The notes under the pieces are model-generated. The model saw only the letters and a list, made by a program, of their open reading frames with translations. It was not told the origin of the DNA and did no database searches. Positions 7,642-45,127 of a DNA stretch of 64,000 nt are shown here, in pieces. A program made the position numbers and the translations under genes. The stretch spans positions 39,507-103,506 of the forward strand of contig JAQUGO010000007.1 in the NCBI GenBank assembly GCA_028684065.1, in the 5' to 3' direction. The stretch is from Sulfurospirillaceae bacterium (lineage in GTDB: Bacteria; Campylobacterota; Campylobacteria; Campylobacterales; Sulfurospirillaceae). Within the stretch, counting starts at the first letter, position 1. Each line of letters starts with the position of its first letter.

Positions 7642-7899
7642 TTATTTTTTAAAGATCTTTTTTAAAAGCCTATTAGATTGATTACCTATATAAGTACCGA
7701 GAAGTATTTGTAGTATTGCTAAAAATCCAAAGCTTATTGCCTGAAAAAATGAATATATTACAAATATTATCGCTAAGGGTGGTATTGTGTTTTCAATAAA
7801 ACTACCTTTCCCATAATAGCTTTGCTTAGCTTTGTCATTGCCCCATCCAGCGATAAACCCAATAAAAAAGCTTATTAAAACTACGGTTTTTATTTCCAC
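7642..7899 (-). CDS. small membrane protein (85 aa)
   Basis: Three hydrophobic segments. Convergent with the STAND gene. Its upstream region is part of the right inverted module. Confidence 0.4.
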   Translation of the reverse strand: MEIKTVVLISFFIGFIAGWGNDKAKQSYYGKGSFIENTIPPLAIIFVIYSFFQAISFGFLAILQILLGTYIGNQSNRLLKKIFKK

Positions 7900-7957
7900 A
7901 AGTCAATCCTTTAAATAATGTCCATCACTACATTTACACAATTATACCTAAACCCTA

Positions 7958-8025
7958 CAAAAGTAAAAAAAAGTAAATCCTTTTCATAAACTTCTTTTAT
8001 CAAATTAGATAAAGGATACGAGATG
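7958..8025. repeat. right (inverted) copy of the divergent-promoter/5'-leader module (includes the start codon of 8023..8304)
   Basis: Reverse complement aligns to 3693..3759. See the left copy. Confidence 0.8.
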
Positions 8026-8304
8026 AGGAACTTTAACCAACAGTCTTCAAGCCAAGATAATAAAGAAATTCGAAACTATGTCAAATTGATGCAAGAAAAT
8101 AGGATAAATACTATCGTTGAAATGAATAAATATATTTCTAGAAATAAAATGTGGAATGATTTTTCTGCAATAAGAAGAGAAAACACTTATCAATCTGGCT
8201 TCACATCCATAGGAATTTCTAAAGATGCATACAAATCAATATGTGAACTATATCAAACAGAAGATTCTATAACAACTTTTCTGATTGGACAAAAAAGAAT
8301 TTAG
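8023..8304 (+). CDS. hypothetical protein (93 aa)
   Basis: Track ORF. It is the first gene of a three-gene plus-strand string. No motif recognised. Confidence 0.4.
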   Translation: MRNFNQQSSSQDNKEIRNYVKLMQENRINTIVEMNKYISRNKMWNDFSAIRRENTYQSGFTSIGISKDAYKSICELYQTEDSITTFLIGQKRI

Positions 8305-8372
8305 CTTTTACTTTTGCAAAGTAAGAAGCACAGAAAGATTTCTCAAAATACAATTTTAATCAAAGGAGTTGA

Positions 8373-8867
8373 ATGTTCAAAATAGGAGTTACAGGTCACA
8401 GAGAATTAAAAAAGGAAGATATTGCAACATATAAATTAAAAGTTTTTCAACAATTAAATATACTAAAACAAAAATATAATAAACTAATTTTATATTCTGC
8501 ACTTGCAGATGGTGCTGATAGATTAGTCATATATGAAGCTCAAAAACTTAATATTAAATTTATAGCTATTTTGCCTTTTGAAAAAGAACTATATAAAAAC
8601 GACTTTTATTTAAATTCAAAAAATGAATTTGATGATTTATTAACCAATTCAGAGGATGTTATACAAATACCACACAAATTTATTTTTTCTAAAGAAAAAC
8701 AGTATGAACTTGCAGGTCACTACATATCTGATAACTGTGATGTACTTTTTGCACTGTGGGATGAAAAATATAATAGACTACAAGGTGGTACAAGTGAAAT
8801 AGTTAAATATCATTTAAAAAACAAAAAAAAGCTATGGCATCTTAAGGTATTTAGGAATAGTTTTTAG
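8373..8867 (+). CDS. SLOG-superfamily (LOG/DprA-like Rossmann) small protein
   Basis: Three landmarks: N-terminal glycine loop KIGVTGHR, mid motif SALADGADRLV, and C-terminal LQGGTSEIV (a GGxGT-like LOG/SLOG signature). Confidence 0.55.
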   Translation: MFKIGVTGHRELKKEDIATYKLKVFQQLNILKQKYNKLILYSALADGADRLVIYEAQKLNIKFIAILPFEKELYKNDFYLNSKNEFDDLLTNSEDVIQIPHKFIFSKEKQYELAGHYISDNCDVLFALWDEKYNRLQGGTSEIVKYHLKNKKKLWHLKVFRNSF

Positions 8868-8880
8868 CTAAAATAATCTC

Positions 8881-10206
8881 ATGACACATGAAGAAATTAA
8901 AAAATTATTAGCTAAATATAATATTACAACCCTTGATGAATTAGAGTATTGTCTATCTGCATTTGATTCAAATGATGAGTGCCTTGATGACCCAGAGTAT
9001 AATAAAAAAAACTGCATGAATTCAAAATGCTACGAAGAATATGGTGTTCCTGATTGTAGGAAAATAGTAGAAATTTATAATAAGTACTTTCAAAAAGATA
9101 TAAAAACAAAAAAAGAGTTTATAGATTATTTAGTAAGCGTTGTCAATAAAAAAAGAAGTAGTGTTGAAAATTACATGTCGTGTAAGAGCTGTAATCAACA
9201 AATTGAAAAAGGCATTCAAACAAGCTTAAAAATATCAGATTCTGGTTTTAAAAAAGATTTTTGTAACAATCTCAATATTAAATTTAGCTATATAAGTTTA
9301 TTTCAAACGGAGTATAAATCAATAAAACAATTTTTAAATAAAGAACATCAAGTTACAAGTGATACCTATATCCCCCAATATAAACAAAGTGAAAATACAA
9401 TGACAAAAGATGAAGAAAAAAAATTGTTTGATATTTCTCATACCTCAATAAATATCTTTCAAACTCATTTAAAAAATGAAGAAAATCTAAAAGGTAGTTT
9501 TAGTTATTTATTAAATTTAGCTTTAAACGCTTTTGATAGAAATCTTGTCAAAGAGTCTAATAAAATTCTTACAATCATAGCAACATTATACAATACATCA
9601 TACTTTACCAAAGAATATCTACAACTAAAAGCAAAAATTCATTCTTATAACAAAGAAGACAAAAAAGCAATTGAAGTTTTAAATGAACTGATTGAAAAAA
9701 ATCAGCCAAACATTGACAGTGAAACTTACAACTTATTAGCTGCATCAATTAAAAGAGAAGCTATGGAAGAGTTTGAAAAGTATAGTGATGAAACAATATT
9801 ACATGAAAAACTAATAAAAGCGAAAGATATCTACTACACTGTTTATAAGCTAACTAATAGCTACTATCCAGCCTTAAATTATATATACCTAATGAAAATT
9901 ACTTCATACATTCAACAAGAAGACAAAGTCCCACTAATAGAAAATGCCACCAATATATGGAAAAACATTAATCTTGTGATGAACGACTGGTGGAGCTTTA
10001 TTGCTAATATTGAATTTTTATTAGTTACAGAGCATTATGAAGAAGCTCTATCTGAGCTAGCAAATCATTTATCTGACTTAAACCAGCTTGAAATCAGTGA
10101 ATTTAATCTTTTTTCTACCATTAGACAGCTGGAATTTTATAGTAAATTTTGCGATGATACTCAAATTAAATTGTTCATTCATAAAATTAGAGGATTACAA
10201 CATTAA
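8881..10206 (+). CDS. Cys-rich N-terminal region + alpha-helical TPR-like domain (DUF4071/TRAFs-binding-domain-like)
   Basis: The helical-repeat C-terminal half contains NSYYPALNYIYL, which resembles the YYpGiNaA motif I associate with DUF4071. It starts 13 nt after the SLOG gene. Confidence 0.45.
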   Translation: MTHEEIKKLLAKYNITTLDELEYCLSAFDSNDECLDDPEYNKKNCMNSKCYEEYGVPDCRKIVEIYNKYFQKDIKTKKEFIDYLVSVVNKKRSSVENYMSCKSCNQQIEKGIQTSLKISDSGFKKDFCNNLNIKFSYISLFQTEYKSIKQFLNKEHQVTSDTYIPQYKQSENTMTKDEEKKLFDISHTSINIFQTHLKNEENLKGSFSYLLNLALNAFDRNLVKESNKILTIIATLYNTSYFTKEYLQLKAKIHSYNKEDKKAIEVLNELIEKNQPNIDSETYNLLAASIKREAMEEFEKYSDETILHEKLIKAKDIYYTVYKLTNSYYPALNYIYLMKITSYIQQEDKVPLIENATNIWKNINLVMNDWWSFIANIEFLLVTEHYEEALSELANHLSDLNQLEISEFNLFSTIRQLEFYSKFCDDTQIKLFIHKIRGLQH

Positions 10207-11696: not shown

Positions 11697-11705
11697 ACTA
11701 TTTAG

Positions 11706-11738
11706 TTGAAAGGTCTATATGGCCTTTCAATATTTTTT
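11706..11738. terminator. bidirectional hairpin terminator between convergent genes
   Basis: TTGAAAGG (11706-11713) pairs with CCTTTCAA (11723-11730) and is followed by TATTTTTT. Confidence 0.55.
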
Positions 11739-11774: not shown

Positions 11775-12653
11775 TTAAATTTTTTCTTTTACAAACTCCC
11801 GTGTCAAAATTCCCACCTTTGGATAGTACTGTAAATCACTACGGTATCCAAGCCTATTGGTAATAAATTTTCTATTGTGCCAAATATACATTCTATGATC
11901 ATGGGTATGGCCATAAATCCAGACTTTTGCTGTAGTTTGAATCGCGAGTTCTTCCCCATCAAAGCAAAAAAACGATGTAGCAATATCTTTGGCATACTGA
12001 GCCAACTGAAATTTCATTTCAATGCTAGGGTTGTAGTGACTGACCATCACATCACAGGCTTGATGCACTGCTTTTAATTTGGCATATTCTTCCTCAAAAA
12101 GTTCATCAAATCTTCTAAAGCGTGTGTATTTTGAATCTTGAATCAGCATAGGCCAATTGGCTTGTAAGTAAGCATCCACATTCGCATAATGTTTGGCTTC
12201 ACTTATTTTTACAAGATTAGGATATTTTTTAGCATAAGCACTATGGTGCCATCCCATAGCGCCGCCAAACTTCACTCCTTCAATCTCAGCAATTGTGCCA
12301 TCAAGCACAATCATACCAGCGTCTTGGTAGCGCTTTTTAGAATCTATCGCTTTTTCTTTTCCATCTTTGTAGTACTGATCGATGATGTCTGCTAGATAGT
12401 AATCATGATTTCCCAAAGTGAGGATAATCTCTTTGTAAAACTCTTCTTTGAGAATTTTGAGGATATGGTTATTTTGCACAATACTATGTCCAATATCACC
12501 AGCCAAGATAAGATACTCTCCTTTAGGTTTAAGACTCTTCCAAAACGAAACAACTTGTTCTTTTTTAGGAAAACTTTTAGGGTCCATCTCTCCCATATAG
12601 GGATACCCAAACCAACTATCAAAATGGGTATCGCTTAGTATGTCAATGAACAT
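11775..12653 (-). CDS. calcineurin-like metallophosphoesterase (292 aa), paralog of 17482..18360
   Basis: Motifs DILSDTHFD, AGDIGH, GNHDYY and GHTHD. Confidence 0.8.
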   Translation of the reverse strand: MFIDILSDTHFDSWFGYPYMGEMDPKSFPKKEQVVSFWKSLKPKGEYLILAGDIGHSIVQNNHILKILKEEFYKEIILTLGNHDYYLADIIDQYYKDGKEKAIDSKKRYQDAGMIVLDGTIAEIEGVKFGGAMGWHHSAYAKKYPNLVKISEAKHYANVDAYLQANWPMLIQDSKYTRFRRFDELFEEEYAKLKAVHQACDVMVSHYNPSIEMKFQLAQYAKDIATSFFCFDGEELAIQTTAKVWIYGHTHDHRMYIWHNRKFITNRLGYRSDLQYYPKVGILTREFVKEKI

Positions 12654-12656
12654 AGG

Positions 12657-13265
12657 TTATCCTAACAAAAGAGGTTTAAAGCCAAGATGTTCCACGCTGA
12701 TATTGATACAGCGTGGATCAGGAGAGATTTTAGAGTGAATATGCCCATGGTAATTCACACAACAATCACACAGATGAAAGATTGCTTGCAACACTTCTTT
12801 CATCTGCAAGACTTCCGTGCTCCTATCATAGGAATCTTCATAAAAAGCAGGATAATGCGAAAAGAGTACTGGTCCGTTTTTGCCCTGCTCTACTAGGCAT
12901 ACACATTTGTTTAAAAGCTCTTTAGAAAAGCGGTTTTCTATTTTTTGCATGATTTTGGCGCTATGTGGTAATTCGATCTCAATACTTTCAATAATGCGGG
13001 TAAATCCAAGTTCACGCAAAGCATTTTTTCCTTTTTTAAAATCATGGTTACCTTTTAAGAGAGTAATCTTCCCATTGAGTCTTTTGATGAAGTCCCAGCC
13101 ATTAGCTTTAAATGCAAAATCTCCTAAATGGAGTACTTCATCATTTGGACATACAACCTCATTCCAAAGTTCAATTAATCGCTCATCACTATAGTCTTGG
13201 CGAAGAGGCTCGTAGATCTTAACATTCTCATGCCCGAAGTGGGTATCTGAAATAATAAAGCGCAT
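12657..13265 (-). CDS. calcineurin-like metallophosphoesterase (202 aa)
   Basis: Motifs ISDTHFGH, LGDF, GNHDF and HGHIH. Confidence 0.8.
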   Translation of the reverse strand: MRFIISDTHFGHENVKIYEPLRQDYSDERLIELWNEVVCPNDEVLHLGDFAFKANGWDFIKRLNGKITLLKGNHDFKKGKNALRELGFTRIIESIEIELPHSAKIMQKIENRFSKELLNKCVCLVEQGKNGPVLFSHYPAFYEDSYDRSTEVLQMKEVLQAIFHLCDCCVNYHGHIHSKISPDPRCINISVEHLGFKPLLLG

Positions 13266-13362
13266 CTGCTTCCTTTTTTACATGTAAAGAGGTGCATTCC
13301 CTCTGCAGACCTTCTGTACTCTCACCATCTTGCCATACGCAAAATAGAGCATGTATTCCTCC

Positions 13363-14070
13363 TTATCCAATATTCTCTTGTAAAAAGACTTTTTTACTGG
13401 GCCACTCCAAAGCACAAAGCTTTCCTTCATACACACATCCCGTATCAATAGCGGCATAATTATTTGTGATAAGAGGTAAAGCACTCTCTTGGATATCATG
13501 TCCAAAGACATTAAAGACCGGATAGTCTAAATAGGTTTGTTCACGCTTATCTTTCAAACGCTCCCAGGCAAAGGCTTGTTTCATCTCGGGATCTTCTCTC
13601 TCTTCCCAAAACGGTAATCCAAAGCCGTGCGTTATAAAAAGTCTTTTACCGTTTTCATCAGGGATATCAAACTCCAAATAACTAGGCAATTGCTTCATCC
13701 ACTCTAAATGAGGACGCAGCATCTCTCCGCTCTTTCCATTGTAACTACGATCAGTCATATCGCCACCATTGCGTTTCCAAAATGCCATATTTCGCAATGT
13801 GTTGTTACCATACATTTGTCCTCCAAGCGAATCCTCAAAGGCATCTAACATCATCTGTTCATGATTGCCTATGACACAAGGATAACCTCCCTCTTTCACA
13901 AACTCCACTACAAGAGCAGAATATTTACCTCTATCAATTAAATCTCCTACAAACACCAAACGAGATTTGGCCTTTTGTGGCAATTGTTCAATCAGGGCAT
14001 GTAAGGATTTGGCACATCCGTGAACATCGCTGATAATATATAAAGGCTCTTCTTTTTTAGAAAAAAACAT
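13363..14070 (-). CDS. PPP-family phosphatase (lambda-PPase/ApaH/PrpE-like)
   Basis: Motifs ISDVHGC, VGDLIDRG and GNHE, with a downstream GH. Confidence 0.8.
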   Translation of the reverse strand: MFFSKKEEPLYIISDVHGCAKSLHALIEQLPQKAKSRLVFVGDLIDRGKYSALVVEFVKEGGYPCVIGNHEQMMLDAFEDSLGGQMYGNNTLRNMAFWKRNGGDMTDRSYNGKSGEMLRPHLEWMKQLPSYLEFDIPDENGKRLFITHGFGLPFWEEREDPEMKQAFAWERLKDKREQTYLDYPVFNVFGHDIQESALPLITNNYAAIDTGCVYEGKLCALEWPSKKVFLQENIG

Positions 14071-14073
14071 TGT

Positions 14074-14820
14074 CTATCCTTGATAAGGTACTTGATAAAT
14101 CATTTTACTAGGCCACTCTAGGACACTTAAATACATGACTTCACTCTTGGGCAATCGCCCATAAACACAACCTGTATCTATGGCTGCATAGCTTTCAGTC
14201 ATAACAATATTATCCACAACATCGTGTCCAAAGACATTAAACACCGGATAGTCCATATAACCCTCTTCATAGGCGTAGTGTTCTCTTACTTTTAGGGTAT
14301 CTACTCTTTTTTTTAAACGATTATTGCGAAGCTTGATTGCCGTCTCTTTTTTAGCCCTCGCCTTCCAAAACGGTAATCCAAACCCATGCGTTATAAAGAG
14401 GGTTTTACCGTTTTCATCTTTAATGTCATACTCCAAATAACGTGGTAAGTCTTTCATCCATGCTAAATGCTCACTCATCTTTCCTGCATTGGGGCGAAAA
14501 TAGCTGCTAATCGTATTTCTGCCACCATTAAGTTTCCAAAGACGCTTAGTGCTGTAGGTATCCACAATCCCCTCAGCCTCCTCATAACGGTGAGCTTGTA
14601 CCATTACCGCCTCATGATTGCCTAATACACAATCATAATTGCCGTTTTTAACAAACTCTATCACCTGCGCCGAATACTTACCACGATCTACCAAATCACC
14701 CACAAAGACAAGGTTTGATTTCTCTTTGTTGGGGAGTGTGTCGATTAAAGCCATTAAGCTTTTATAACACCCGTGAACATCCCCGATAATATACAAAGAA
14801 TCCCTAGGAACTTTGACCAT
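14074..14820 (-). CDS. PPP-family phosphatase (lambda-PPase/ApaH/PrpE-like), paralog of 13363..14070
   Basis: Motifs IGDVHGC, VGDLVDRG and GNHE. It shares LFITHGFGLPFW and YPVFNVFGHD with its neighbour. Confidence 0.8.
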   Translation of the reverse strand: MVKVPRDSLYIIGDVHGCYKSLMALIDTLPNKEKSNLVFVGDLVDRGKYSAQVIEFVKNGNYDCVLGNHEAVMVQAHRYEEAEGIVDTYSTKRLWKLNGGRNTISSYFRPNAGKMSEHLAWMKDLPRYLEYDIKDENGKTLFITHGFGLPFWKARAKKETAIKLRNNRLKKRVDTLKVREHYAYEEGYMDYPVFNVFGHDVVDNIVMTESYAAIDTGCVYGRLPKSEVMYLSVLEWPSKMIYQVPYQG

Positions 14821-16684
14821 TGCCCACTCCTAGCTTCATTTTTTCCACATCTTCCTTTGGTAAGGAAACATACAATAATAAATCATAAGGCAGTTCTAAA
14901 AAGAGCTCCTGGTCCCTTGCTTCCAATAAGCGATCCTTCTTGCTAACCGTTTTTAGCATCGTTTTAAAAAATGCAAGCTCTTCATGTGTGCGAGGGCGCA
15001 GTTTGCACAAGAGTTCGGCCGCATCTTTTTTGGCTTTAAAATAACGCACAGCAATAACATCCTTATTGGTATCTCTTAAAATCATCTTCACCGTTCGTTT
15101 TTCCTCTATCACCATACGTGCTTTAGGCGCTACAACAGGTGTACTCTCTTTTTTACTTAAATTAATCAAATTTATCACAGCACTTTCCACATGATTTACA
15201 CGCGATTCAAGCGATGGCGCACTCTCATCCATCCAGGACTGTTTTTTATTTTCTTCTAAAAAACGTTTATTTTCCAAGAGTTCTGCGTTCATTTTTGGGA
15301 AAACCCTAACAACACTCTTTTTACCAGAGAGATCGATATAATAGGCACTCTCTCTTCCAAACAAATCCGAATCATTCACTAAAACCCCACCTCTTTTTTC
15401 AACAGTGGTTTGATCCGCAAGCACGCCTTTTTGTTCTTGAAACTTTTGCTCCACCATATTCTCCAAGAGTGAATCAAAAAACATCCCAGCAACCTTGCTT
15501 TTAATACCATCTTTAAGACACCAAAAGGGTTCAAAGGATTCACAGCGCTCATCGTTGATGTTCTTATAAGAGATTACAAACGCGACATTGACCATCATCT
15601 CTTCTGTCTCCAAGAGCCCAACACTGCGCTTTAACAATAGCTCATCTTGTGTAGCCATAATGTATTCAAACCGACACTCCCTGCAGACAGAAACTTCAGG
15701 AAGCGTTTTAGGCGTAATAATCTTATGGGCTTCATCAATAAAGATACTTACCCCTTGAGCTTTTGTGTTTCCTGCACGCCTTTTTAATGCGGCAAAGAGT
15801 CTGGCATTGATAATTTGTGTGGCACTCTTTCCAATATTCTCACTGTTAATAATCACAATTTTATTTTCTATCAACTCCCCAATAGGTTTAGCGTACGGAT
15901 CATTTAAAAAGGAGATTCGCGCTAAATCTTGAATCGTATTTTTCAGACAATTCATGACACCATGATTTCCTGAATCTCTCTCCTCTTCTTTGATATGCCT
16001 AAATGCGTTAAGCTCCAAAGCAAAGTTTTTGAGCTTTTTTTCAAAGTGACTTAAAGCATACTGCAGCTTTATGTTCTCCTGAAGGGTTTCACTCTCCACC
16101 AAAGTTTTATGAATCAAGCCAACCGCTCCTCCTAGGACACCAATATGCTTTTCAATTTCACTGGGTTTAATCAATGCATAAATAGCACTAAAGGTAGGAG
16201 GAATGTCATACGCACGCAGTGGACTACTTTCTACACTCCCGTTGAACTTTTTTAAAAAAGCATAGAGCTCTTTAAGCTCCAAAAGTGAAAAGTAGAGGGC
16301 TTTAAATAACGAGAGTGAGGCAATATCCCAATAATCTTTATTAAATCCTCCAGAACTAAGCAAGGTGTCAATCTCTTTTTCACTTAATCCATCCAAGAGA
16401 TTCAAGGTCTCTCCCCACAAAACACCAATTTCAAGAACATCTTTCAATCTTCCAAGGTTATCCGCAACGCATTTGACTTTTAAATGCGTATTACCTTTAA
16501 AATCGAACACTATAACTGTGTGAGCAAGAGAAATTCTATTTTCAATATTAGGCAAGACGAAAGAACTCGTTTTACCGCTCCCCGTTTGTCCAAAACAGAT
16601 GGCATTGGTAAAATCAAGGGGCACTAAAATAGGATTAATTGTTTGTTTATCTTCTAATCCATCTATATCAAATCCAACACGCAT
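14804..16684 (-). CDS. P-loop ATPase, type-IV coupling protein (TraG/TraD/VirD4)-like or FtsK/HerA-like, no N-terminal TM
   Basis: Walker A FGQTGSGKTSSFVLPNI is followed by VIVFDFKGN, the T4CP-like pattern G.tGsGKt..viPn...v.D.KG. Walker B is IFIDEAHKI. Confidence 0.6.
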   Translation of the reverse strand: MRVGFDIDGLEDKQTINPILVPLDFTNAICFGQTGSGKTSSFVLPNIENRISLAHTVIVFDFKGNTHLKVKCVADNLGRLKDVLEIGVLWGETLNLLDGLSEKEIDTLLSSGGFNKDYWDIASLSLFKALYFSLLELKELYAFLKKFNGSVESSPLRAYDIPPTFSAIYALIKPSEIEKHIGVLGGAVGLIHKTLVESETLQENIKLQYALSHFEKKLKNFALELNAFRHIKEEERDSGNHGVMNCLKNTIQDLARISFLNDPYAKPIGELIENKIVIINSENIGKSATQIINARLFAALKRRAGNTKAQGVSIFIDEAHKIITPKTLPEVSVCRECRFEYIMATQDELLLKRSVGLLETEEMMVNVAFVISYKNINDERCESFEPFWCLKDGIKSKVAGMFFDSLLENMVEQKFQEQKGVLADQTTVEKRGGVLVNDSDLFGRESAYYIDLSGKKSVVRVFPKMNAELLENKRFLEENKKQSWMDESAPSLESRVNHVESAVINLINLSKKESTPVVAPKARMVIEEKRTVKMILRDTNKDVIAVRYFKAKKDAAELLCKLRPRTHEELAFFKTMLKTVSKKDRLLEARDQELFLELPYDLLLYVSLPKEDVEKMKLGVGNGQSS

Positions 16685-16701
16685 AGGTTTTTCCTTTCTT
16701 C

Positions 16702-17037
16702 TTATCTCAGAAACGATTCACTTAAGTCTCTTAAATCAATCGTATATACACAGAGGTATGCATCAATCCATTCTCGCTCACTTTGTGAGCAAGCATCCCA
16801 TAAGACTTCAAGAGAGTCCTCTTCTTGATGACGATCTAAACACCCCAAAAAATCAAACATCTCTTCCGCAGATGAAGGTGTTTGGTCAATAATCGTTTGA
16901 ATCATTTTAGAAGAGCTCGCAACACAAAGAAAAGCTGCGCCTCCTTTATGTGTGTCTTCTACCAAAACTTTAAATAAGAGGCTTTGTCTTTGTGGGAACA
17001 ACAAAGCGCACCTCTCCAATAATGCTTTCACTCTCAT
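16702..17037 (-). CDS. hypothetical protein (start uncertain)
   Basis: Track ORF. Its 5' end overlaps the upstream gene by 68 nt, so the real start may be internal. Confidence 0.3.
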   Translation of the reverse strand: MRVKALLERCALLFPQRQSLLFKVLVEDTHKGGAAFLCVASSSKMIQTIIDQTPSSAEEMFDFLGCLDRHQEEDSLEVLWDACSQSEREWIDAYLCVYTIDLRDLSESFLR

Positions 17038-17470
17038 CTCTAACCAAATTTCCTACAAAGTGTTCTCTTGCTTCATAATAACTCATAGGAGGATTTAAAG
17101 AGATCTCCTCATGGTAATTTCCGCCAGAATAACGACCAATACGAAGCGTTGCATGTGTAAAAAGCTCATGCTGGTTTTGCCCACGAATCAAACAAATCAA
17201 TCTTTTGTCTTCCTCGCTCGCATAAATCATCTCTTCAGCTTTTGGGGCCTCTTCTAGGCGAAACACATACTCAGAATTAGCCGTTTCAATATTTAACAGT
17301 TTGCTCTCTTCATTGTAGATATACGAAACCACCAAACTGGTATGAAAGTATTTTTCTGAGCTAAAATCACTCCAAACGGCCATTCTATTAACCTCTAAAT
17401 TTCCCCAAACTTCTTTGGGAATCCATCCATCTAATCCTAGATTGGTGGTACTGACAAATTTTGCTCTCAT
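16970..17470 (-). CDS. hypothetical protein (167 aa; start trimmed to MRAKFVSTT)
   Basis: The track ORF 16970..17569 overlaps the end of the upstream phosphoesterase gene. The ATG at 17470 is preceded by AAGGA. Confidence 0.4.
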   Translation of the reverse strand: MRAKFVSTTNLGLDGWIPKEVWGNLEVNRMAVWSDFSSEKYFHTSLVVSYIYNEESKLLNIETANSEYVFRLEEAPKAEEMIYASEEDKRLICLIRGQNQHELFTHATLRIGRYSGGNYHEEISLNPPMSYYEAREHFVGNLVRDESESIIGEVRFVVPTKTKPLI

Positions 17471-17481
17471 AGTAAGGTCCT

Positions 17482-18360
17482 TTATTTTTTTTCGATTACA
17501 ATTTCTTTGGTGATTACTGTGTTGGGTTTTGGCCACTCGTTGTAATAACCTAAAGCATTCGTGATACACTCTTTGCTGTGCAGTGTATAGCGCATGCTAT
17601 CGTGTGTATGTCCATAAATCCAAAGATTCCCATGCATGTTCTTAACCAACGCTTCTCCATCAAAGCAAAAGAATGAGGTACTAGGATTTCTAGCCCACTG
17701 TTTTGTTTGATGTTCAAATTCAATGCTTGGATTGTAGTGACTGACCATTACATCACAAGCTTGATGCACTGCTTTTAATTTGGCATATTCTTCTTCAAAG
17801 AGTTCATCAAAAAAGCTTAGTTTGGTATAGCGCTTGTCATTGATGCAATCGCTCCAAAGTTCTTGTAGAAAATCCTCCAAAGAGGGATAATAATGAGAAG
17901 CCTGCATGACTCCTAACTTTGCTTTGTTCTTTTTGGCATAAGCACTATGGTACCAACCCATAGCGCCACCAAATTTCACTCCTTCAATCTCTACCACTGA
18001 CCCATCAAGCACAATCATGCCAGCCTTTTCATAACTAGCTTTAGCTGCAGATGCTTTTTCCTGACCACTTTGATATAACGATTTATATTCACGATCTGCT
18101 ACATAGTAATCGTGATTTCCAAGTGTGAGGATAATCTCTTTGTAAAACTCTTCTTTGAGTATTTTTAGGATGTGGAGGTTTTGCACAATACTATGTCCAA
18201 TATCACCAGCTAAGACAAGATAATCAGCTTTAGGCTTGAATCTTCTCCAAAGACTGATAACCGTTTCATGGTGAGGATAAAGTTTTTTAGGCTCATCCAT
18301 ATGTGGGTATCCTAACCAGCTATCAAAATGGGTATCGCTTAAAATATCGATTAGCATCAT
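17482..18360 (-). CDS. calcineurin-like metallophosphoesterase (292 aa), paralog of 11775..12653
   Basis: Motifs DILSDTHFD, AGDIGH, GNHDYY and GHTHD. Long near-identical nucleotide blocks are shared with 11775..12653. Confidence 0.8.
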   Translation of the reverse strand: MMLIDILSDTHFDSWLGYPHMDEPKKLYPHHETVISLWRRFKPKADYLVLAGDIGHSIVQNLHILKILKEEFYKEIILTLGNHDYYVADREYKSLYQSGQEKASAAKASYEKAGMIVLDGSVVEIEGVKFGGAMGWYHSAYAKKNKAKLGVMQASHYYPSLEDFLQELWSDCINDKRYTKLSFFDELFEEEYAKLKAVHQACDVMVSHYNPSIEFEHQTKQWARNPSTSFFCFDGEALVKNMHGNLWIYGHTHDSMRYTLHSKECITNALGYYNEWPKPNTVITKEIVIEKK

Positions 18361-18418: not shown

Positions 18419-18513
18419 TAATAGTTTATAAATGAAATAATACTATAGAATAGGAGATTAGTCAAGTAAAAATTATAAAATATATATTTTTTATGTTATT
18501 ATTTCTTTATAGA

Positions 18514-18528
18514 TATCAAATAGGTAGT
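18514..18528. promoter_or_regulatory. 15-nt direct repeat TATCAAATAGGTAGT, copy 2 (ends 3 nt before ATG 18532)
   Basis: Exact repeat of 18404..18418. Confidence 0.5.
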
Positions 18529-18531
18529 AAT

Positions 18532-19263
18532 ATGAAAACAGATGAAGTCTACGCACAACTCTTAGGATGTTCAGTATCAGGGTACTATAAGTGGAAAAAA
18601 CAGCAAAGACCAATTTTTACATTTTTAGAGAACTGTTTTACAAAAGACGAGTTAGAAACTTATTTGGTTACAGGCAATATTCCTGGAAAAATAGAGTTTG
18701 CGAATCGTGCTTATGTAGGGATGGATTCAAAGCTAGCTTATTTTATCACCAAGCCGGTAAAGCATAAGGTTTATCTTATTCTTCTTTTTACATATGGGAT
18801 ACTTGATAATGCGTGCGAAAATGCCATTGAACTGTTTGAAAAGAGACTGATCTCCCGTCAAGAATTATCTGATTTTATGCAACATTATCAACAAAATCTT
18901 TCATTTGAGCTCTCTTTATATATCAAAGAAAATCTCAATCAGAATTGGAAAGTATTTGAAAGGGATATTATTCGAGGAGGCATCAATGACTGGCTACCTC
19001 TTTATCTCGAAATTATTCAGCTTGCAATCAAACATGATTGCTTTGAAAAGGTGTTTGGGAACTATGATAATTCTCAAGAGCAGTGTTATGTTCCCAATCC
19101 TCCCGAAATGTTCGCCATTTTTGAAGGATGGGATGATATTGATGTACGCTATAAAGCAGTACTATCTAATATCAAAAAAGCCTTTCTGAGCAATACACTT
19201 GATTCATTACCGTTGTGGTCAACTTATGAACCTATTTTTACGATGAAAACTAATCCCAAATAA
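18532..19263 (+). CDS. hypothetical protein, possible N-terminal HTH (start trimmed to MKTDEVYAQLLG)
   Basis: The track ORF starts at 18493; the internal ATG at 18532 looks more likely. LGCSVSGYYKWKK resembles an HTH recognition region. Divergent from the phosphoesterase operon. Confidence 0.4.
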   Translation: MKTDEVYAQLLGCSVSGYYKWKKQQRPIFTFLENCFTKDELETYLVTGNIPGKIEFANRAYVGMDSKLAYFITKPVKHKVYLILLFTYGILDNACENAIELFEKRLISRQELSDFMQHYQQNLSFELSLYIKENLNQNWKVFERDIIRGGINDWLPLYLEIIQLAIKHDCFEKVFGNYDNSQEQCYVPNPPEMFAIFEGWDDIDVRYKAVLSNIKKAFLSNTLDSLPLWSTYEPIFTMKTNPK

Positions 19264-19269
19264 AATATT

Positions 19270-22200
19270 TTAATTTATTTTAGCAGCCAATAATTCCAAA
19301 TACATCTCCACCAAGGATTCATCCTTCAATGCATTGGCTGCTATTTCTAACACTTCCCAACCAAGCAACTTTGCTTTTGTGCGTTTGATTTTGTCTTTTT
19401 CAGCTTGAACAGGATTTCCATGGTAGCGCGTTGAAAGTCCATCGATGTATATCAATACTTTTTTGTCAATGTATGCGAAATCAGCAATGGTTGTTTCATT
19501 GCCTCGTAATTCAATTTCATGTTGTTGTGTCGGCTCAGGAAAATTATTTTTACGCAAAATATCCAAAAAAGCTTCTTCTGCTGGGCTATCTGTTTTATTT
19601 TCAGATTTTTTTGGAACTGCATTGTTTGGTATCATCATTTTTTCAATTGGGGCTTTTTTGTAGTTCTCTAAAAGATTGATAGCTTCAATGCGATTTAGAA
19701 CATTGTGATACTGTTGGTTGCTATAATTTAAAAGACACTTGTAGCACACATCTTCACAATCACATGCATTCAATTTGGCTATAGCTTTTTCAACGATAAT
19801 TGGTAAATTATCTAAAAAGAGTGAGAGATATCCACTCCCCCCTGGTAATGAATCGTAAAAGACCACATTGAATTGTCCATTATCTTTCGATTCAACGACG
19901 CCATCAATATCAAATTCTCTTATATCCAATATCTCAATGGCACCAAGTTTTAAAGACTCTAAAAAATTAGCAGCAATACTTGCAGATGCAAAGCCTTCAA
20001 AGATAATCAAATCAGATTCTAAATCAGTGTGTAAAGCATTCCAAAAGAACTTTGTATCACCAATAAAACAACGCTTTTTATGCTCTTCCATGAAATTAGC
20101 AATTTCAGCTTCACTAGCTTTTGGATGTCTTACAGAACCGCATGATGGGCAGATTAAAAATCCTAACTCTTTTTGACCATACATCCCTAGGTTTATGAGT
20201 CTTACATTGCCATTTTTGAGGTATTTTATTTTTGTTTTACCAATTTCATAGAGTGTTCCACCAAAATGTTTATCTAAAATGAGTGAACCAGTTTTAAAAC
20301 CAACTCTGACCCGTGACTCTCTAAGGTCATCTATCTTTTGAACTTTGTTTAAAACGATATCTACCATAGGAAAAGAAAAAAAGTTTTGGTACTCTTTATC
20401 GCCACCGTCATAGTCTCTGGTAAAGTTTTCCAAAATGGCGCCACTACTCGTTTCTAAAATCATATCTTTTCGGATATCTTCACTACTAAAGTTGACCTCT
20501 TTCTCTTTGATTTTTGCGAAATTGAGCCGTGTGATTTCAAAGATATTTTTATTGGCATAGACTTTATTTGCAGGAGTAAGTTCTCTTATGGCTATGGTGT
20601 TGGCTCTTGAAATTTCAAACAAAGGTTCAACACAAACAGCTCTCACACTCTCTCTGCCAAGGGCATAGCTTGGGAAAAAACCATCTTTGGCAAGGTAACT
20701 TAGTGTGTAGTTGTCTTGTTTATCACTAAGGTACCCTTCTAATGCCCTGTTATAAGCATTAAATTCTCTCTGTTCTGCTTTGTTTAAGACCTCTTTTTGA
20801 CGATAGGGAGCAAGAACACTTCGATATGTTTTTATCTCCAACATCAGTTCATCAAGATGCTTTTTTAAATCACTCGATACTTCTTTTGTAGCGCTCTTTA
20901 AAAACTCTTCATTGATGCTTTCTTTGTCTTCAAGTGTCCAGTGGTCAAAAAATATTTTTTTGATATCGCTGTAGATAGATTCGAAATTATCTTCTATTAT
21001 TTTTGCTAAAGCTTTAAAATCATCAACTTTTTCTTTAAACCCTGCATTTCCTATATCATCGTTGTAAGAGATATAACGAGAAATATATGTTGGAAAGGTC
21101 TCTTTGAGCAATGCTTCATCTTTGATATGGCTACGGAGCCATGTCAATATCGCAGAGTGAACATGTTTTCTCACAAGATTTTGGTTTGACATACTAAAGG
21201 TTGGTATGCGAATATTACCTGTTATCATCTCAGCAGGATTTTCAAAGAAATAGCTATCGTGTGATGCATTTTTACAGTAAGTGAACACTGTAGCTATGCG
21301 ATGCTTACGCCCTGCTCGACCTACTCTTTGTGTATAGTTTGGCGTTGATGGTGGCACATTTTTGAGTAAAACCATCTCAAGTTTACCAATATCCACACCC
21401 ATTTCGAGTGTTGGTGTTGCAACCAAAGCGTTACATGTACCATCAACTTTTTTAAACTCTTTTTCGATTTCTTCGCGCTTCTCTTTTCCAACTTGTGCGG
21501 AGTGTTCTTCTGGCTTTATAGGAGAATATTTTAGGCTTGTATACTGGAAAACATCGTAATTTTCTTTATCTAAAGGCTTATAAGTGACTTTACCTTTACA
21601 GTTGTATGTTGGGCAAGATAATGTCGGCAAAGCATGCATATAGACTTTTTTACAAACTTGACATTCGTAAGAGCCTTGAGTATGTTGAAAGCCAATTTTG
21701 TCTTTATTAAGTTGGTAAATTCGTTGTGCATTAAACAATGATGTTGTTTCGCCGTTGTAACCTTTATAGACCAAATCTACATTAACCAACAAATTGGTAT
21801 CAATTGCAAAATCCCATAATTTATCTAAAAATATATTGATATGCTGTGTGTGAATGACTGATTTTTTTAGCATCTCTTGTACGGAACTTCGACCATTTTT
21901 TGATTTGATAGCATGAATATAATTCGGAGCTTTTTCGTCACTGCTACTGGCTAAAAAAATGGCATGAGGGAAAGTATCTTTCATAAAAGGAATAATGCCA
22001 TCACGGACTTCTAGGTCTTTTTCATTCCATTTTCTTTTTGCTAATTCATCGCTTACAGCGCCTCGTTTTCGGATGAAATCTAAGATATTGTGAATGATAG
22101 CTTTGAGTTCATCCATAGAATTAAGCCCTAAGATATCAACATACTCCTCAAAGTCACTCAATTCGCTGTTAGAGATGCCATCGTATAAGACACTGACCAT

Positions 22201-24447
22201 ACCCAGTTGCTCTAAACTGACGCGTTGTCTGGAAGAGTAAAATTCATCGATTAAAAACCAACGGATGCGTTTACTCAGTTCATCTTGTTTGAATCCTCCA
22301 CCAGGGTAAATCCTTCTTGTTTCAGACTCTACAGATAAACGAGATACAAAACCATCATAACTGAGTGCTTCATCGTAGGGACTTTCAAAACTTTCAATGA
22401 TTTTATGCGCAATAAATCGAAGATAAAAACGCTTAGATCGCTCACTCATCCAACTGGCTGTAAAAGCAGCATCTTGCCTACCATCTGCAAATATCAAAAT
22501 CTTTTTGAGCTCTTCTTCGTTCATGGAGCTGAGCATTGTTTGCGCTAAAATCATCACATCTAGCACTTCAGTTGTTCTGATCTGAGTTATGGGTAAATAA
22601 TCACCTTTACTCGTCATGCCACACGCTTGACACTTCTCGGCTCCATTTTCTCCTACTTCAATGGCATGAACCTCGATAAGAGTATCGGTATTTCGGCATT
22701 TAGAGTTTTGGCATCCTTGGGCATTTTTCTTATGCAAGGCACCACAATGTTTACACAGATACATGAACTCCATTTTATTGCCATCGTACTCTTCATTGTA
22801 AAGCCTATGGGTAAAAAGCCAAGCACTCTGAGCCATTGGATCTATCTTCTGATAATCTCTGCGTGATTCATTAAAAGTATAAACACCAACGCTATTTTCA
22901 CTTACTGGGTCTCTATCAAATATTCCTTCATGGTAATGCTGACCGCATGTTCTGCAGATTTTAACATCAAATTTTAAACTTTTCGTATCGCTTTTTTTTG
23001 TAAAGTGAAGGGTCGGGCTTTGTGCATCTTCGTAACTTAGAGTGGCTTCATTAAGCCCTTTGACAAAATAGTGAAGCTTAGGTCTTATAACAGGCTCATT
23101 ATCAAAGCGTACAATCGCACCAAGGGTTAGATAAGAGAGTAACTCGGCTTCAAGTACTTTTTCACTTGCACTTTTGCGGTCGCCAATCGTTCGGATACGC
23201 TTAAATCCCTCACTTGGAATCTTGGGTATTGAAAATTCATTTTCGATTTGGCGTATATATTCACTGTGTGCCAATATATACCCACATTTATCTATGTTTT
23301 TGCCCGTTGCTGGTGGCTCAATGCCAGTTAGTTCTACTGCTAGCTTTAGTAGCGCATCACTGATTTCATCGACTTCTTCTTGTAAATGAAACGCTCTTGC
23401 TTCTTGCAAGATATCTTCAGCCAAATCAAGTGTTCGTGTAGGCAATTTAGAAGTTACAAACGCTTCTATCTCACGCTCTTTATACTCCTCTTCTACCACT
23501 TCGATACTCTGAGCACTAACACCAAAAAGCTTGCTTGCAAAAGTTCTGATGACCTTACTGCTGTCTTTATTGGCAACGGTGGCTGAAGTGCCGATACACT
23601 GAACGGTTGTAGGGAAAAGCGACTTTATACGACGGTTAAGACATGCAACTTCGCTTCCTAGAGCTCCTGTATAGGTATGGACTTCATCGTAAACCATAAA
23701 TTGCAATGTTGGTGTTCTAAACAGCTCTAAGTCTTTATCGCGCAATAAAAGATACTCAAGTTGTGAGTAGTTGGTTAAAAGAATTTGAGGTTTGTTTTTT
23801 AAAATCTCTTCACGCGTAAAGCACTCTTCAAACGGTAGAGGAATCTCTCCTGTTCTATTGAATATATCCATCTCTTCATGCGAGTACTTACGGCTAATTT
23901 CTAGCTTTTGACGGCTTGATGTGTTTTGATTGGTTTCACCCGTGTACCGACCAAAAGTCACACCCGTTCCTGCTAGCATAAAACGAAGTCGTTCTAATTG
24001 GTCATTGACAAGGGCATTCATAGGATAAACGATGATAGCCACCATACCATTTTGAGCACGATGCTTTAAACAATAATCAACGATAGGTAACAAAAAGCTC
24101 TCAGTTTTACCACTACCCGTACCCGTGGAAACGATAAGGTTTTTACCAGCATTAACAGCACGCAATGCCTTTTCTTGGTGTCTATGGATAGCCTCAAAAG
24201 GGAAAATATCTTTAAGTACAGGATGCAAAGCAAGTTCACTTTCCAAGTCTTTCATCTTGGCACCTTCAATAAAGGGCTTATTGAGGTAGATAAACGGCCC
24301 TTTTGAGATGAGATTGGCATCACCTGTTTGGAGTTTTTCATCAAACTGTTTTTTGATACCCTCATCGACTAAAGGAAAGTTTCCTTTGAGATAGCGCCCG
24401 TATTGTGTGATGACATCTTTACCAAATTGTACTGGATTTAATCCCAT
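19270..24447 (-). CDS. DEAD/DEAH helicase fused to DUF1998 (MrfA-type Zn domain) and a C-terminal DUF559/Vsr-like endonuclease domain; DrmA(+DrmB)-like / DruE-like
   Basis: Walker A GTGSGKTESFLLPI and DEVH. Helicase-C region TPTLEMGVDIG...QRVGRAGR. DUF1998-like cysteine motifs CPSCGS and CDCEDVCYKCLLNYSNQQYHNVLNR. C-terminus ADFAYIDKKVLIYIDG...EKDK...GWEVLEI. Confidence 0.8.
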   Translation of the reverse strand: MGLNPVQFGKDVITQYGRYLKGNFPLVDEGIKKQFDEKLQTGDANLISKGPFIYLNKPFIEGAKMKDLESELALHPVLKDIFPFEAIHRHQEKALRAVNAGKNLIVSTGTGSGKTESFLLPIVDYCLKHRAQNGMVAIIVYPMNALVNDQLERLRFMLAGTGVTFGRYTGETNQNTSSRQKLEISRKYSHEEMDIFNRTGEIPLPFEECFTREEILKNKPQILLTNYSQLEYLLLRDKDLELFRTPTLQFMVYDEVHTYTGALGSEVACLNRRIKSLFPTTVQCIGTSATVANKDSSKVIRTFASKLFGVSAQSIEVVEEEYKEREIEAFVTSKLPTRTLDLAEDILQEARAFHLQEEVDEISDALLKLAVELTGIEPPATGKNIDKCGYILAHSEYIRQIENEFSIPKIPSEGFKRIRTIGDRKSASEKVLEAELLSYLTLGAIVRFDNEPVIRPKLHYFVKGLNEATLSYEDAQSPTLHFTKKSDTKSLKFDVKICRTCGQHYHEGIFDRDPVSENSVGVYTFNESRRDYQKIDPMAQSAWLFTHRLYNEEYDGNKMEFMYLCKHCGALHKKNAQGCQNSKCRNTDTLIEVHAIEVGENGAEKCQACGMTSKGDYLPITQIRTTEVLDVMILAQTMLSSMNEEELKKILIFADGRQDAAFTASWMSERSKRFYLRFIAHKIIESFESPYDEALSYDGFVSRLSVESETRRIYPGGGFKQDELSKRIRWFLIDEFYSSRQRVSLEQLGMVSVLYDGISNSELSDFEEYVDILGLNSMDELKAIIHNILDFIRKRGAVSDELAKRKWNEKDLEVRDGIIPFMKDTFPHAIFLASSSDEKAPNYIHAIKSKNGRSSVQEMLKKSVIHTQHINIFLDKLWDFAIDTNLLVNVDLVYKGYNGETTSLFNAQRIYQLNKDKIGFQHTQGSYECQVCKKVYMHALPTLSCPTYNCKGKVTYKPLDKENYDVFQYTSLKYSPIKPEEHSAQVGKEKREEIEKEFKKVDGTCNALVATPTLEMGVDIGKLEMVLLKNVPPSTPNYTQRVGRAGRKHRIATVFTYCKNASHDSYFFENPAEMITGNIRIPTFSMSNQNLVRKHVHSAILTWLRSHIKDEALLKETFPTYISRYISYNDDIGNAGFKEKVDDFKALAKIIEDNFESIYSDIKKIFFDHWTLEDKESINEEFLKSATKEVSSDLKKHLDELMLEIKTYRSVLAPYRQKEVLNKAEQREFNAYNRALEGYLSDKQDNYTLSYLAKDGFFPSYALGRESVRAVCVEPLFEISRANTIAIRELTPANKVYANKNIFEITRLNFAKIKEKEVNFSSEDIRKDMILETSSGAILENFTRDYDGGDKEYQNFFSFPMVDIVLNKVQKIDDLRESRVRVGFKTGSLILDKHFGGTLYEIGKTKIKYLKNGNVRLINLGMYGQKELGFLICPSCGSVRHPKASEAEIANFMEEHKKRCFIGDTKFFWNALHTDLESDLIIFEGFASASIAANFLESLKLGAIEILDIREFDIDGVVESKDNGQFNVVFYDSLPGGSGYLSLFLDNLPIIVEKAIAKLNACDCEDVCYKCLLNYSNQQYHNVLNRIEAINLLENYKKAPIEKMMIPNNAVPKKSENKTDSPAEEAFLDILRKNNFPEPTQQHEIELRGNETTIADFAYIDKKVLIYIDGLSTRYHGNPVQAEKDKIKRTKAKLLGWEVLEIAANALKDESLVEMYLELLAAKIN

Positions 24448-24515
24448 ATGTGCCCTTTAGATAGTTTTTTATTTAATGTTTTATATACTAAAAACTTTAT
24501 ATTTTAAGTAACTAT

Positions 24516-24938: not shown

Positions 24939-24947
24939 TTTATGCCA

Positions 24948-29556: not shown

Positions 29557-29557
29557 G

Positions 29558-32551: not shown

Positions 32552-32610
32552 TTATCCTTCATTTTATAAAAAATATTATTTTATCGTAATATGTATTTTA
32601 TTTAGACTTC

Positions 32611-32748: not shown

Positions 32749-32772
32749 GGGTAGCTCCTGAATATTTTATAT

Positions 32773-37300: not shown

Positions 37301-37301
37301 T

Positions 37302-41581: not shown

Positions 41582-41602
41582 TAAAATCCTTATTTACAAA
41601 AT

Positions 41603-45065: not shown

Positions 45066-45127
45066 GGTGCTTCTTTATGATTATTTGCATTGATTATAGC
45101 AAATATTAAACTCATTAAATAATAAAA

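Follow-up and report, generated by a model that had tools for sequence, protein, structure and literature searches.

What could a bacterium gain from an operon that sets five metallophosphoesterases of three types around an ATPase resembling the coupling proteins of type IV secretion systems (T4SSs)? The question is raised by a locus on contig JAQUGO010000007.1 of a Sulfurospirillaceae bacterium (assembly GCA_028684065.1), within a stretch of 64,000 nucleotides (contig positions 39,507 to 103,506; hereafter the window), where eight closely packed open reading frames (ORFs) occupy positions 11775–18360 of the minus strand. A first-pass annotation of the window, made from the sequence by itself, had proposed that the locus might be a defence module, a counter-defence locus or a set for healing nucleic-acid ends. 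The evidence leans to defence because homologous operons lie in defence islands and in the cargo of Tn7-like elements, stand behind WYL regulators and contain a hypervariable cassette, while the ATPase is absent from phage collections. We tentatively read the operon, with somewhat less than even confidence, as an undescribed and rare candidate immunity module, directed against phages or plasmids and restricted to Campylobacterota.

An operon of eight genes

In the direction of transcription, the first gene (g1, or MPE292a; 17482–18360) encodes a calcineurin-like metallophosphoesterase (MPE) of 292 amino acids (aa). It is followed by two orphan genes, g2 (16970–17470; 166 aa from the ATG at 17470, or 199 aa from an upstream GTG) and g3 (16702–17037; 111 aa), and by g4 (14804–16684), whose 626-aa product is a predicted soluble ATPase of the FtsK/HerA superfamily, as judged from a partial Pfam match and an AlphaFold2 fold. 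The next two genes encode paralogous PPP-type phosphoesterases resembling lambda phosphatase and ApaH, namely g5 (PPP248; 14074–14820; 248 aa) and g6 (PPP235; 13363–14070; 235 aa). After a spacer of 97 nt (13266–13362), the operon closes with a small metallophosphoesterase of a third type, g7 (MPE202; 12657–13265; 202 aa), and with g8 (MPE292b; 11775–12653; 292 aa), a paralogue of g1. From g1 to g8 the junctions measure 11 nt, a 68-nt overlap of g2 and g3 in different reading frames (16970–17037), 17, −17, 3, 97 and 3 nt. All eight genes are present on the minus strand at the positions that the first-pass annotation had given, and its junctions of −17, 3, 3, 11, 17 and 97 nt are borne out, the g2/g3 overlap being an addition.

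The gene set is more than a chance assembly, as the same order recurs in independent, diverged contigs. Homologous loci that were inspected are designated here by L-numbers and their proteins by P-numbers, while coordinates given without an L-number refer to the window. The complete order from g1 to g8 is found in L001 and L034 (ATPase 46% identical to that of the window), in L024 to L026 (58%) and in L046 (77%). L045 (83%) has the same order through the ATPase gene, after which the contig ends, and L035 holds part of it. In L023 (83%), g1 to g6 are kept and an unrelated set of three genes stands where g7 and g8 would be. That homologous genes elsewhere might be scattered, a possibility entertained in the first-pass annotation, did not prove to be the case: the phosphoesterases and the ATPase are linked at every operon-type locus examined (ATPase identity of at least 46%).

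Exchange of the g3–ATPase cassette

Comparison of the window with L001/L034 reveals a sharply bounded replacement inside an otherwise closely related operon. DNA identity is 87% over positions 18357–16926 (g1 and g2, with the opening codons of g3), falls to short patches of 72–77% over 16926–14796 (g3 and the ATPase gene), and returns to 90.5% over 14796–13363 (g5 and g6) and 93% over 13338–11791 (g7 and g8). The proteins of L001 follow suit, with identities of 43% for g3, 46% for the ATPase and 92–94% for the other six (g1 is 92–93% identical in L001 and L023, and g8 94% in L001). The same trend is seen against L024, at 47% for g3, 58% for the ATPase and 68–81% for the other six. Within the ATPase, divergence from P0017 is uneven: identity is 70% and 58% in the two nucleotide-binding parts and drops to 38% in the helical insert and 25% in the C-terminal domain. 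Substrate recognition by genuine coupling proteins falls to the regions that correspond to this insert and C-terminal domain, and we read g3 together with the ATPase as a probable exchangeable recognition module. Since the swap is so sharply bounded, it can be regarded as a natural experiment that indicates which parts determine specificity.

The homology to L001/L034 starts at the start codon of g1 and ends at position 11791, 16 nt inside the 3′-end of g8. As these limits coincide with the ends of the operon, it appears to move as a unit between different regulators and islands. G+C content across the operon is 38–39%, against about 25–30% to its left (1–12 kb), a step that is consistent with horizontal acquisition.

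One difference outside the cassette lies between g6 and g7. L034 and L001 carry there two intact genes (L034 14221–15127), which encode a 163-aa helix-turn-helix (HTH) protein and a 137-aa GGACT/AIG2 protein. In the window, the spacer fuses the HTH gene's ribosome-binding site and ATG to the first eight codons of the GGACT gene (MLYFAYGK), and the conserved sequence upstream of g7 follows. Because these residual starts of both L034 genes remain, the 97-nt spacer is the scar of a two-gene deletion. The palindrome that the first-pass annotation had reported in this gap, TTACATGTAA, is indeed present just upstream of the ribosome-binding site of g7 and is conserved in L034; the idea of a plain operator-bearing spacer was not upheld. 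The lost HTH–GGACT pair may originally have belonged to the system, since GGACT genes also follow distant homologues of the ATPase.

Variant loci and the constant core

The first-pass annotation had described the phosphoesterases as arranged around the ATPase. Variant loci, two of which (L043 and L044) were reached by a g2 profile search, do not bear out the ATPase as a fixed centre. On the 2.3-kb contig of L044 (1–2258), an MPE292 gene (61% identical to g1), a g2-like gene (27%) and a PPP235-like gene (68% identical to g6) are contiguous, and g3, the ATPase and g5 are absent between or among these three genes. L043 (2767–9500) has the order MPE, NYN-domain protein, MPE, 95-aa protein, 108-aa protein, fusion of a Zeta_toxin-like kinase with a g2 domain, MPE, MPE and 143-aa protein. 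Its four MPEs all belong to the MPE292 family, at 30–39% identity to g1 and g8, and the operon adjoins a TrwC relaxase, a resolvase and an Mrr_cat gene. Because the ATPase is lacking in the one variant and replaced by a kinase in the other, it is not the invariant centre of the system. The more constant core may be MPE292 with g2, joined by an interchangeable P-loop NTPase, and the ATPase with g3 then has the character of an exchangeable cassette. The ATPase-less and kinase-bearing variants thereby hint at which genes form the functional core.

Further loci show reduced arrangements. L033 has MPE292, a fused g2–g3 gene and the ATPase gene, followed only by a PPP fragment before an integrase. 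In the metagenomic L048 (301–1569), the ATPase gene begins 37 nt after g2, leaving no room for g3. L027 and L040 hold a minimal pair of the ATPase (39%) and a g3-like gene.

L031 (9651–12095) has the look of a lone ATPase gene on a satellite-like integrative element, a reading that was rejected. A run of N lies directly upstream of its ATPase gene, and downstream an 82-aa ORF joins a PPP N-terminus (IIGDVH) to the C-terminus of an IS256-like transposase. Given this scaffold gap and chimera, L031 is taken to be an interrupted or mis-assembled operon; its lineage, as L033 shows, carries MPE292 and the g2–g3 fusion upstream of the ATPase.

The two orphan families

Neither g2 nor g3 matches anything in Pfam, NCBIfam, PHROGs or PADLOC. 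Relatives of g2 amount to 15 clusters among 5.8 billion proteins and, in a full profile search, 11 representatives among 1.84 billion; eight relatives of g3 were found. The g2 protein is beta-rich (all-beta in the AlphaFold2 model) and g3 is alpha/beta. In L033 (867–1664), the two form one fused ORF of 265 aa, P0060. This natural fusion was modelled (pLDDT 71) for a fold search against the PDB and BFVD, which returned nothing significant and only weak PH/EVH1-like matches with a probability of at most 0.63. The g2 domain is also fused C-terminally to the Zeta_toxin-like kinase of L043 (P0092), and it seems, from its company across these loci, to be a conserved partner of the MPE292 family. The g3 family tracks the ATPase: in L027 and L040, a g3-like gene of 90–92 aa precedes the gene for the ATPase (39% identical), and g3 and the L027 partner have a C-terminal motif in common (EWIDAY..CVYTI against EFWLDAY..CYVITL). 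Through the operon, these orphan families, of which g2 has only about 11 representatives in 1.84 billion proteins, gain partners with which they can be tested.

Defence islands, regulators and mobility

The operon is always found in the company of defence genes, and a defence-island setting was met at least four independent times. In the window, the operon is flanked on one side by a STAND NTPase gene and a TPR-S gene, and on the other by a defence island with a DruE/DrmA-like helicase, DrmMI, DrmD (DISARM), a CBASS cyclase, a WYL gene, and LmuA and LmuB of Lamassu. L034 is accompanied by Wadjet-like MksE/DUF3584 genes and a type IIG methylase, L024 by a DUF2357/PDDEXK_7 nuclease and Wadjet-like genes, and L023 by an ABC-three-component-type set (SMEK_N/CTD10, MC6, DUF2326). 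L027, which has g3 and the ATPase only, adjoins a type III CRISPR locus.

A Tn7-like TniQ/TniB/TnsB(/TnsA) module lies within 1–2 kb of the operon in L024 (16228–20776) and L034 (18115–20495), which suggests that the operon may travel as Tn7-like cargo in these two lineages. No Tn7 genes were found in the window. The first-pass annotation had spoken of a mobile element full of nucleotide-signalling defences; the defence genes are there, in the form of DISARM, CBASS, Lamassu and STAND genes, while the mobile element is not in evidence in the window.

A WYL regulator stands directly upstream of g1, in the same direction, in L001, L023, L024 and L034. Its position is taken by a divergent gene in the window, L045 and L046, namely up_256 (18493–19263, plus strand in the window), which encodes a 256-aa candidate regulator with an HTH-like N-terminus. 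The protein is 87% identical in L045 and 66% in L046, has no match in Pfam or PADLOC, and over about 60–120 residues its N-terminus is 30–43% identical to the products of divergent genes in L037, L006 and L007. Promoter-like −35/−10 pairs (10 of 12 consensus matches) were found upstream of g1 on the minus strand (18437–18499), and a GC-rich hairpin that could act as a bidirectional terminator (11705–11731) sits between g8 and a convergent gene for an outer-membrane-protein-like product. Scans for promoters and terminators in the region gave counts not above the shuffled expectation; a promoter upstream of g1 is plausible at most, and the limits of the transcription unit are drawn from the arrangement of the genes.

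The neighbours in the window deserve a fuller description. The set at 19270–33903 begins beside the operon with a helicase of 1725 aa that scores best with DruE1 (Druantia), followed by DrmMI (25738–29595; E = 0), DrmD (29558–32551; 1.5e-283) and the CBASS oligonucleotide cyclase (32773–33903). The helicase, DrmMI and DrmD together look like a DISARM system with a DruE/DrmA-like fusion helicase. The remainder of the island (3784–10206 and 34905–48211) adds more genes of defence type, which encode LmuA (40340–41581) and two LmuB-like SMC ATPases, a Pif1/RecD-like helicase (PDC-S68-like), a DUF4062-STAND-TPR protein, a TPR-S protein, a DUF2779 protein and a WYL regulator.

A coupling-protein-like ATPase without a transfer system

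The Walker A motif of g4 (GQTGSGKT) is at residue 32 and its Walker B motif (IFIDE) at residue 314. A membrane anchor was not detected, the highest mean Kyte-Doolittle hydropathy over 19 residues being 1.11. The Pfam family T4SS-DNA_transf (PF02534) matches with 29.7 bits against a cut-off of 20.1, over residues 24–70 only, around Walker A. NCBIfam coupling-protein models give 12–32 bits against cut-offs of 250–900 and are thus far below them (conju_CD1115 31.8 against 250, TraD 24.1 against 366, VirD4 12.4 against 728). A profile built from 24 sequences of the g4 family retrieved only noise from the PDB sequences and no solved type IV coupling protein (T4CP). PADLOC returned nothing beyond a weak mad8 P-loop match (0.0066), and no HerA model matched.

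The AlphaFold2 model of g4 (pLDDT 75.6, pTM 0.67; N-terminal 25 residues disordered) was more informative. Foldseek ranks DotL first (6sz9_A, 9e-8), then VirB4, HerA and TrwB (1e9r, 2e-5), with TM-scores for DotL and TrwB of 0.44–0.49 when normalised to the target. Matches also extend to the Sir2-HerA complexes of E. coli (8sub and 8j4u, E about 1e-3) and to HerA-NurA complexes. Between the Walker motifs lies a helical insert (residues ~118–260, with helices over 118–256), and a C-terminal domain of its own (~431–626, about 190 aa) completes the protein. In TrwB, an all-alpha domain sits between Walker A and Walker B, and we infer from topology that the insert of g4 is its equivalent. By its predicted structure, g4 belongs to the FtsK/HerA superfamily and is a soluble ATPase whose core resembles that of T4CPs; the T4CP-like ATPase without a transmembrane anchor that the first-pass annotation had recognised is thus confirmed by fold comparison and hydropathy.

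Such a protein could in principle be the relic of a coupling protein in a decayed region for conjugative transfer or mobilisation, with the phosphoesterases as unrelated cargo. The above-cut-off T4SS-DNA_transf match, the best structural match to DotL, and the name given by NCBI to the exact g4 sequence in a Sulfurospirillaceae metagenome-assembled genome (MAG), 'type IV secretory system conjugative DNA transfer family protein', would all agree with this. Yet the Pfam match covers only the surroundings of Walker A, the specific coupling-protein models are far from satisfied, and the anchor is missing. No relaxase, VirB4 or other T4SS gene was found beside any of the approximately 25 ATPase homologues inspected, nor in the window. 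Relatives of g4 are present on only five of 72,556 plasmids, four of these from Arcobacter or Aliarcobacter, and in the two plasmid loci inspected there were no adjacent transfer genes; the DNA of the operon had no match in the plasmid collection. In addition, the order with the phosphoesterases is kept across ATPase identities of 46–83%, with reading frames and motifs intact. Decay of a transfer region, which the first-pass annotation had allowed for, is therefore not borne out, and we give it almost no credence.

The ATPase is rare. There are 45 cluster-level relatives among 5.8 billion proteins and none in 50,697 phage records or in IMG/VR. In a scan of one genome per species, for which a single sequence retrieved nothing and an alignment query was needed, 22 relatives came up; records placed in Campylobacterota account for 20 of them, and the remaining two are from a Candidatus Peribacteria MAG (L007, 32% identity) and, marginally, a Planctomycetaceae record (L022, E 1e-5).

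Across Helicobacter and other Campylobacterales, the genes of the more distant members (27–40% identity) keep to conserved housekeeping neighbourhoods. The Helicobacter proteins (L002 7859–12735, L019 and L028–L030) are 552 aa long and 36–40% identical to g4, and are encoded in the order fabD, pfs, SixA-like His_Phos_1 and ATPase; in L002, a DHH/DHHA1 phosphoesterase gene follows. This soluble T4CP-like protein is conserved in the Helicobacter records inspected and appears to be uncharacterised. In other Campylobacterales the ATPase gene adjoins AhpC, and one 39% homologue adjoins a phosphate ABC transporter. A GGACT/AIG2 gene follows the ATPase gene (29–33% identical) in the Arcobacteraceae loci L037 (6179–9973), L009 (10001–12022) and L020 (10001–13093), and a divergent HTH gene related to up_256 precedes it in L037, L006 and L007. 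The broader family of soluble T4CP-like ATPases is thus repeatedly found near phosphatases or near a gene for a gamma-glutamyl-cyclotransferase-like protein.

These settings raise the possibility that the window operon is an accessory metabolic or signalling unit, concerned with dephosphorylation of phosphoproteins or with turnover of nucleotides or polyphosphate, and with no role in genetic conflict. Besides the proximity of distant ATPases to the SixA-like His_Phos_1, DHH/DHHA1 and phosphate-transport genes, it is in keeping with this that PPP enzymes such as PrpA and PrpB are protein phosphatases. The operon is, however, extremely rare and patchy in its distribution, and horizontal transfer into different islands is indicated by homology that runs from the start codon of g1 to just inside the end of g8. 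The surrounding defence genes and the swapped hypervariable cassette also fit poorly with a metabolic role, which we regard as very unlikely.

Five metallophosphoesterases of three types

The five phosphoesterase calls of the first-pass annotation, in three types, are supported by Pfam, PHROGs and motifs alike. PF00149 (Metallophos; gathering cut-off 21.5 bits) is matched above the cut-off by g1 (3e-10), g5 (4e-15), g6 (9e-14), g8 (2e-9) and g7, which also matches PF12850. The metal-binding motifs DxH, GD, GNH[DE] and GH are intact in all five, which are apparently active enzymes. Identity between paralogues is 61% for g1 and g8 and 54% for g5 and g6.

The g5 and g6 proteins carry the PPP motifs GDxHG, GDxVDRG and GNHE and match the NinI-like phrog_246 (about 1e-39 to 8e-39 for g5 and 1e-43 to 1e-42 for g6). 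In a search of PDB sequences, residues 6–221 of g6 align with lambda phosphatase (1g5b, 2e-11), in other words over the full length, and further matches are the phosphatase of Clostridium thermocellum Pnkp (4j6o) and ApaH. Both fall below every NCBIfam equivalog cut-off (ApaH PRK00166 76 against 176 bits, PrpA 65 against 326, Pnkp 62 against 750). The g7 protein matches phrog_547 (2e-35) and, in the PDB, aq_1665 (1xm7, 1e-9); its exact sequence in a Sulfurospirillaceae MAG is named 'metallophosphoesterase family protein' by NCBI, and in IMG/VR the MPE202 type is represented by a single weak locus. The MPE292 proteins match phrog_1649 (6e-30 for g1 and 1e-22 for g8), have distant homologues in large phages such as Bacillus phage G (gp348), and have no solved relative among the PDB sequences. 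Their match to the PADLOC candidate PDC-S10 is partial (37 bits and 5e-10 for g1, 27.7 bits and 4e-7 for g8), covering profile positions 28–107 of 223 only.

The phage affinities of all three types have a bearing on whether the operon could serve counter-defence, with the phosphoesterases degrading immune signals (cyclic oligonucleotides, cNMPs, Np4N or related molecules) and so shielding their carrier element against systems of the CBASS, Pycsar, Thoeris or type III CRISPR kind. Dinucleoside polyphosphates are substrates of ApaH-like enzymes, and the strong matches to phage families, the Tn7-like cargo setting of L024 and L034, the TrwC relaxase beside L043 and the CBASS cyclase in the window can all be counted in favour. 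Other features point away from it. The ATPase is absent from phage collections and almost so from plasmids, and the operon's position, within chromosomal defence islands and downstream of WYL-type regulators, is typical of defence genes. Signal degradation requires no hexameric ATPase and no hypervariable cassette for recognition, and the copy in the window would degrade the CBASS signals of its own host. We consider this explanation improbable, though not negligible.

A second alternative emerges from the affinities to repair enzymes. The operon could process nucleic-acid ends in response to damage inflicted by toxins or other defences, the phosphoesterases trimming 2′,3′-cyclic, 3′- or 5′-phosphates or resecting damaged RNA or DNA ends, and the ATPase acting as a HerA-like translocase that feeds them substrate, comparable to HerA-NurA-Mre11-Rad50 or to Pnkp healing. 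TIGR04075, the Pnkp phosphatase domain, matches g5 and g6 at 4e-17, with the PDB entry 4j6o as a further match, and g1 and g8 weakly match SbcD-related phosphoesterases (TIGR00024, 24–26 bits with a cut-off of 115). The fold of the ATPase matches HerA, including HerA-NurA complexes; the Zeta_toxin-like kinase, NYN domain and phosphoesterases of L043 amount to a kinase, phosphatase and nuclease set; and WYL regulators respond to single-stranded DNA or damage. On the other hand, the Pnkp and SbcD matches remain far below their family cut-offs, and no ligase, Hen1, Rad50/SbcC or NurA is linked to the operon at the loci examined, L023, L024, L034 and L043 among them. Allelic exchange of g3 and the ATPase among operons otherwise about 90% identical is not what a repair role would predict, and a repair pathway would hardly be so sparsely distributed. 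We judge end processing to be unlikely overall, though it retains appreciable weight.

Proposed mode of action

If the operon is an immunity module, its parts could work together as follows. An HTH regulator (up_256 here, a WYL protein in other lineages) would control expression. The soluble and probably hexameric ATPase, with the co-varying g3, would form a recognition and motor module that engages nucleic acid or nucleoprotein derived from an invader, with specificity set by the fastest-evolving parts of the ATPase, namely the helical insert and the C-terminal domain. The phosphoesterases (two MPE292 proteins with g2 as adaptor, g5, g6 and MPE202) would be the effectors, hydrolysing phosphoesters in nucleic-acid ends, nucleic acids or nucleotides and so blocking replication of the invader. 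We infer the defence role, the oligomerisation of the ATPase, the sensing component and the substrates from gene content, comparison and modelling.

Several observations weigh against this proposal. In PADLOC, no component of the operon qualifies for any validated defence family, and the argument for a defence role is one of guilt by association, which is a weak form of evidence. As the distant ATPase relatives (27–40%) lie in the housekeeping synteny described above (fabD-pfs-His_Phos_1-ATPase, or beside AhpC), the ATPase family as a whole is not specific to defence. WYL regulators also control DNA-damage responses, and their presence does not discriminate between defence and repair. All three phosphoesterase types are common in phages, which would also fit an origin in counter-defence or end healing. 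Finally, some loci are truncated or lack genes (g7 and g8 in L023, g3 in L048, the PPP enzymes in L033), and this blurs which genes cooperate.

A bolder form of the immunity hypothesis starts from the variant loci. The operon would then belong to a new modular immune class with a core of MPE292 enzymes and g2, onto which different P-loop NTPases are plugged as sensor heads, in the window the soluble T4CP-like ATPase with g3 and in another locus the zeta-toxin-like kinase. The T4CP-like ATPase would serve as a decoy coupling protein. Through its hypervariable all-alpha-like and C-terminal domains it would capture protein-capped DNA, such as relaxase-bound single-stranded DNA or phage genomes primed by terminal proteins, and the phosphoesterases would cut the phosphotyrosyl or phosphoseryl link between protein and DNA and resect the DNA. 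We hold this form of the hypothesis to be highly speculative.

Should the operon prove to be an immunity module, it would add a system with a battery of metallophosphoesterases as effectors, a class of effector that is still poorly understood, and it would exemplify a coupling-protein-like ATPase recruited from secretion to a soluble role.

Comparison with known systems

In full-text literature searches, no description of this operon architecture was found, in agreement with the first-pass annotation, whose author knew of no described system built this way, and in PADLOC no curated defence model recognises the operon beyond the partial PDC-S10 match. PDC-S10 is a single-gene candidate, matched over some 80 residues, whereas MPE292 is present here as two to four paralogues per operon together with a g2 domain. 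Individual phosphoesterases of comparable kind are known from phages: a metallophosphoesterase of mycobacteriophages, gp48, has been reported to disrupt host genomic DNA (PMC12287305), and orthologues of the T5 A1 protein are calcineurin-like predicted phosphodiesterases (PMC7824862).

The g5 and g6 proteins share the PPP motifs of lambda phosphatase (NinI), ApaH, PrpA/B and the Pnkp domain and differ from all of them as tandem paralogues within an operon that score below the equivalog cut-offs. Compared with Mre11/SbcD, MPE292 is far below the SbcD-related cut-off. The archaeal HerA-NurA-Mre11-Rad50 operon is similar in that it encodes a calcineurin-like phosphoesterase, Mre11, together with a translocase of the HerA superfamily; the window operon, in contrast, includes no Rad50/SbcC, SMC-like or NurA gene and is set in a bacterial defence island.

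With the type IV coupling proteins TrwB, VirD4 and DotL, g4 shares the nucleotide-binding domain, a GxTGSGKT Walker A motif and the inserted helical domain. It differs from them in lacking an N-terminal anchor, in a sequence likeness that extends over no more than about 50 residues and in possessing a distinct C-terminal domain of 190 aa, and its family is linked to phosphoesterase, GGACT or His-phosphatase genes and not to T4SSs.

The systems nearest in design are Sir2-HerA ('Nezha'), DUF4297-HerA and Gao_Her, in which a soluble FtsK/HerA ATPase is likewise encoded beside hydrolases in a defence island. Unlike these, the window operon has five metallophosphoesterases as candidate effectors, no adjacent Sir2 or DUF4297 gene, and the additional g2 and g3, and its ATPase is nearer to T4CPs than to HerA, with no match to the HerA models of PADLOC. 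The domains of the operon all come from known superfamilies, and a HerA-superfamily ATPase with a hydrolase in a defence island is already a known design. By analogy, HerA-effector complexes may offer the closest guide to how the operon works, with the ATPase as a scaffold or motor that controls its effectors.

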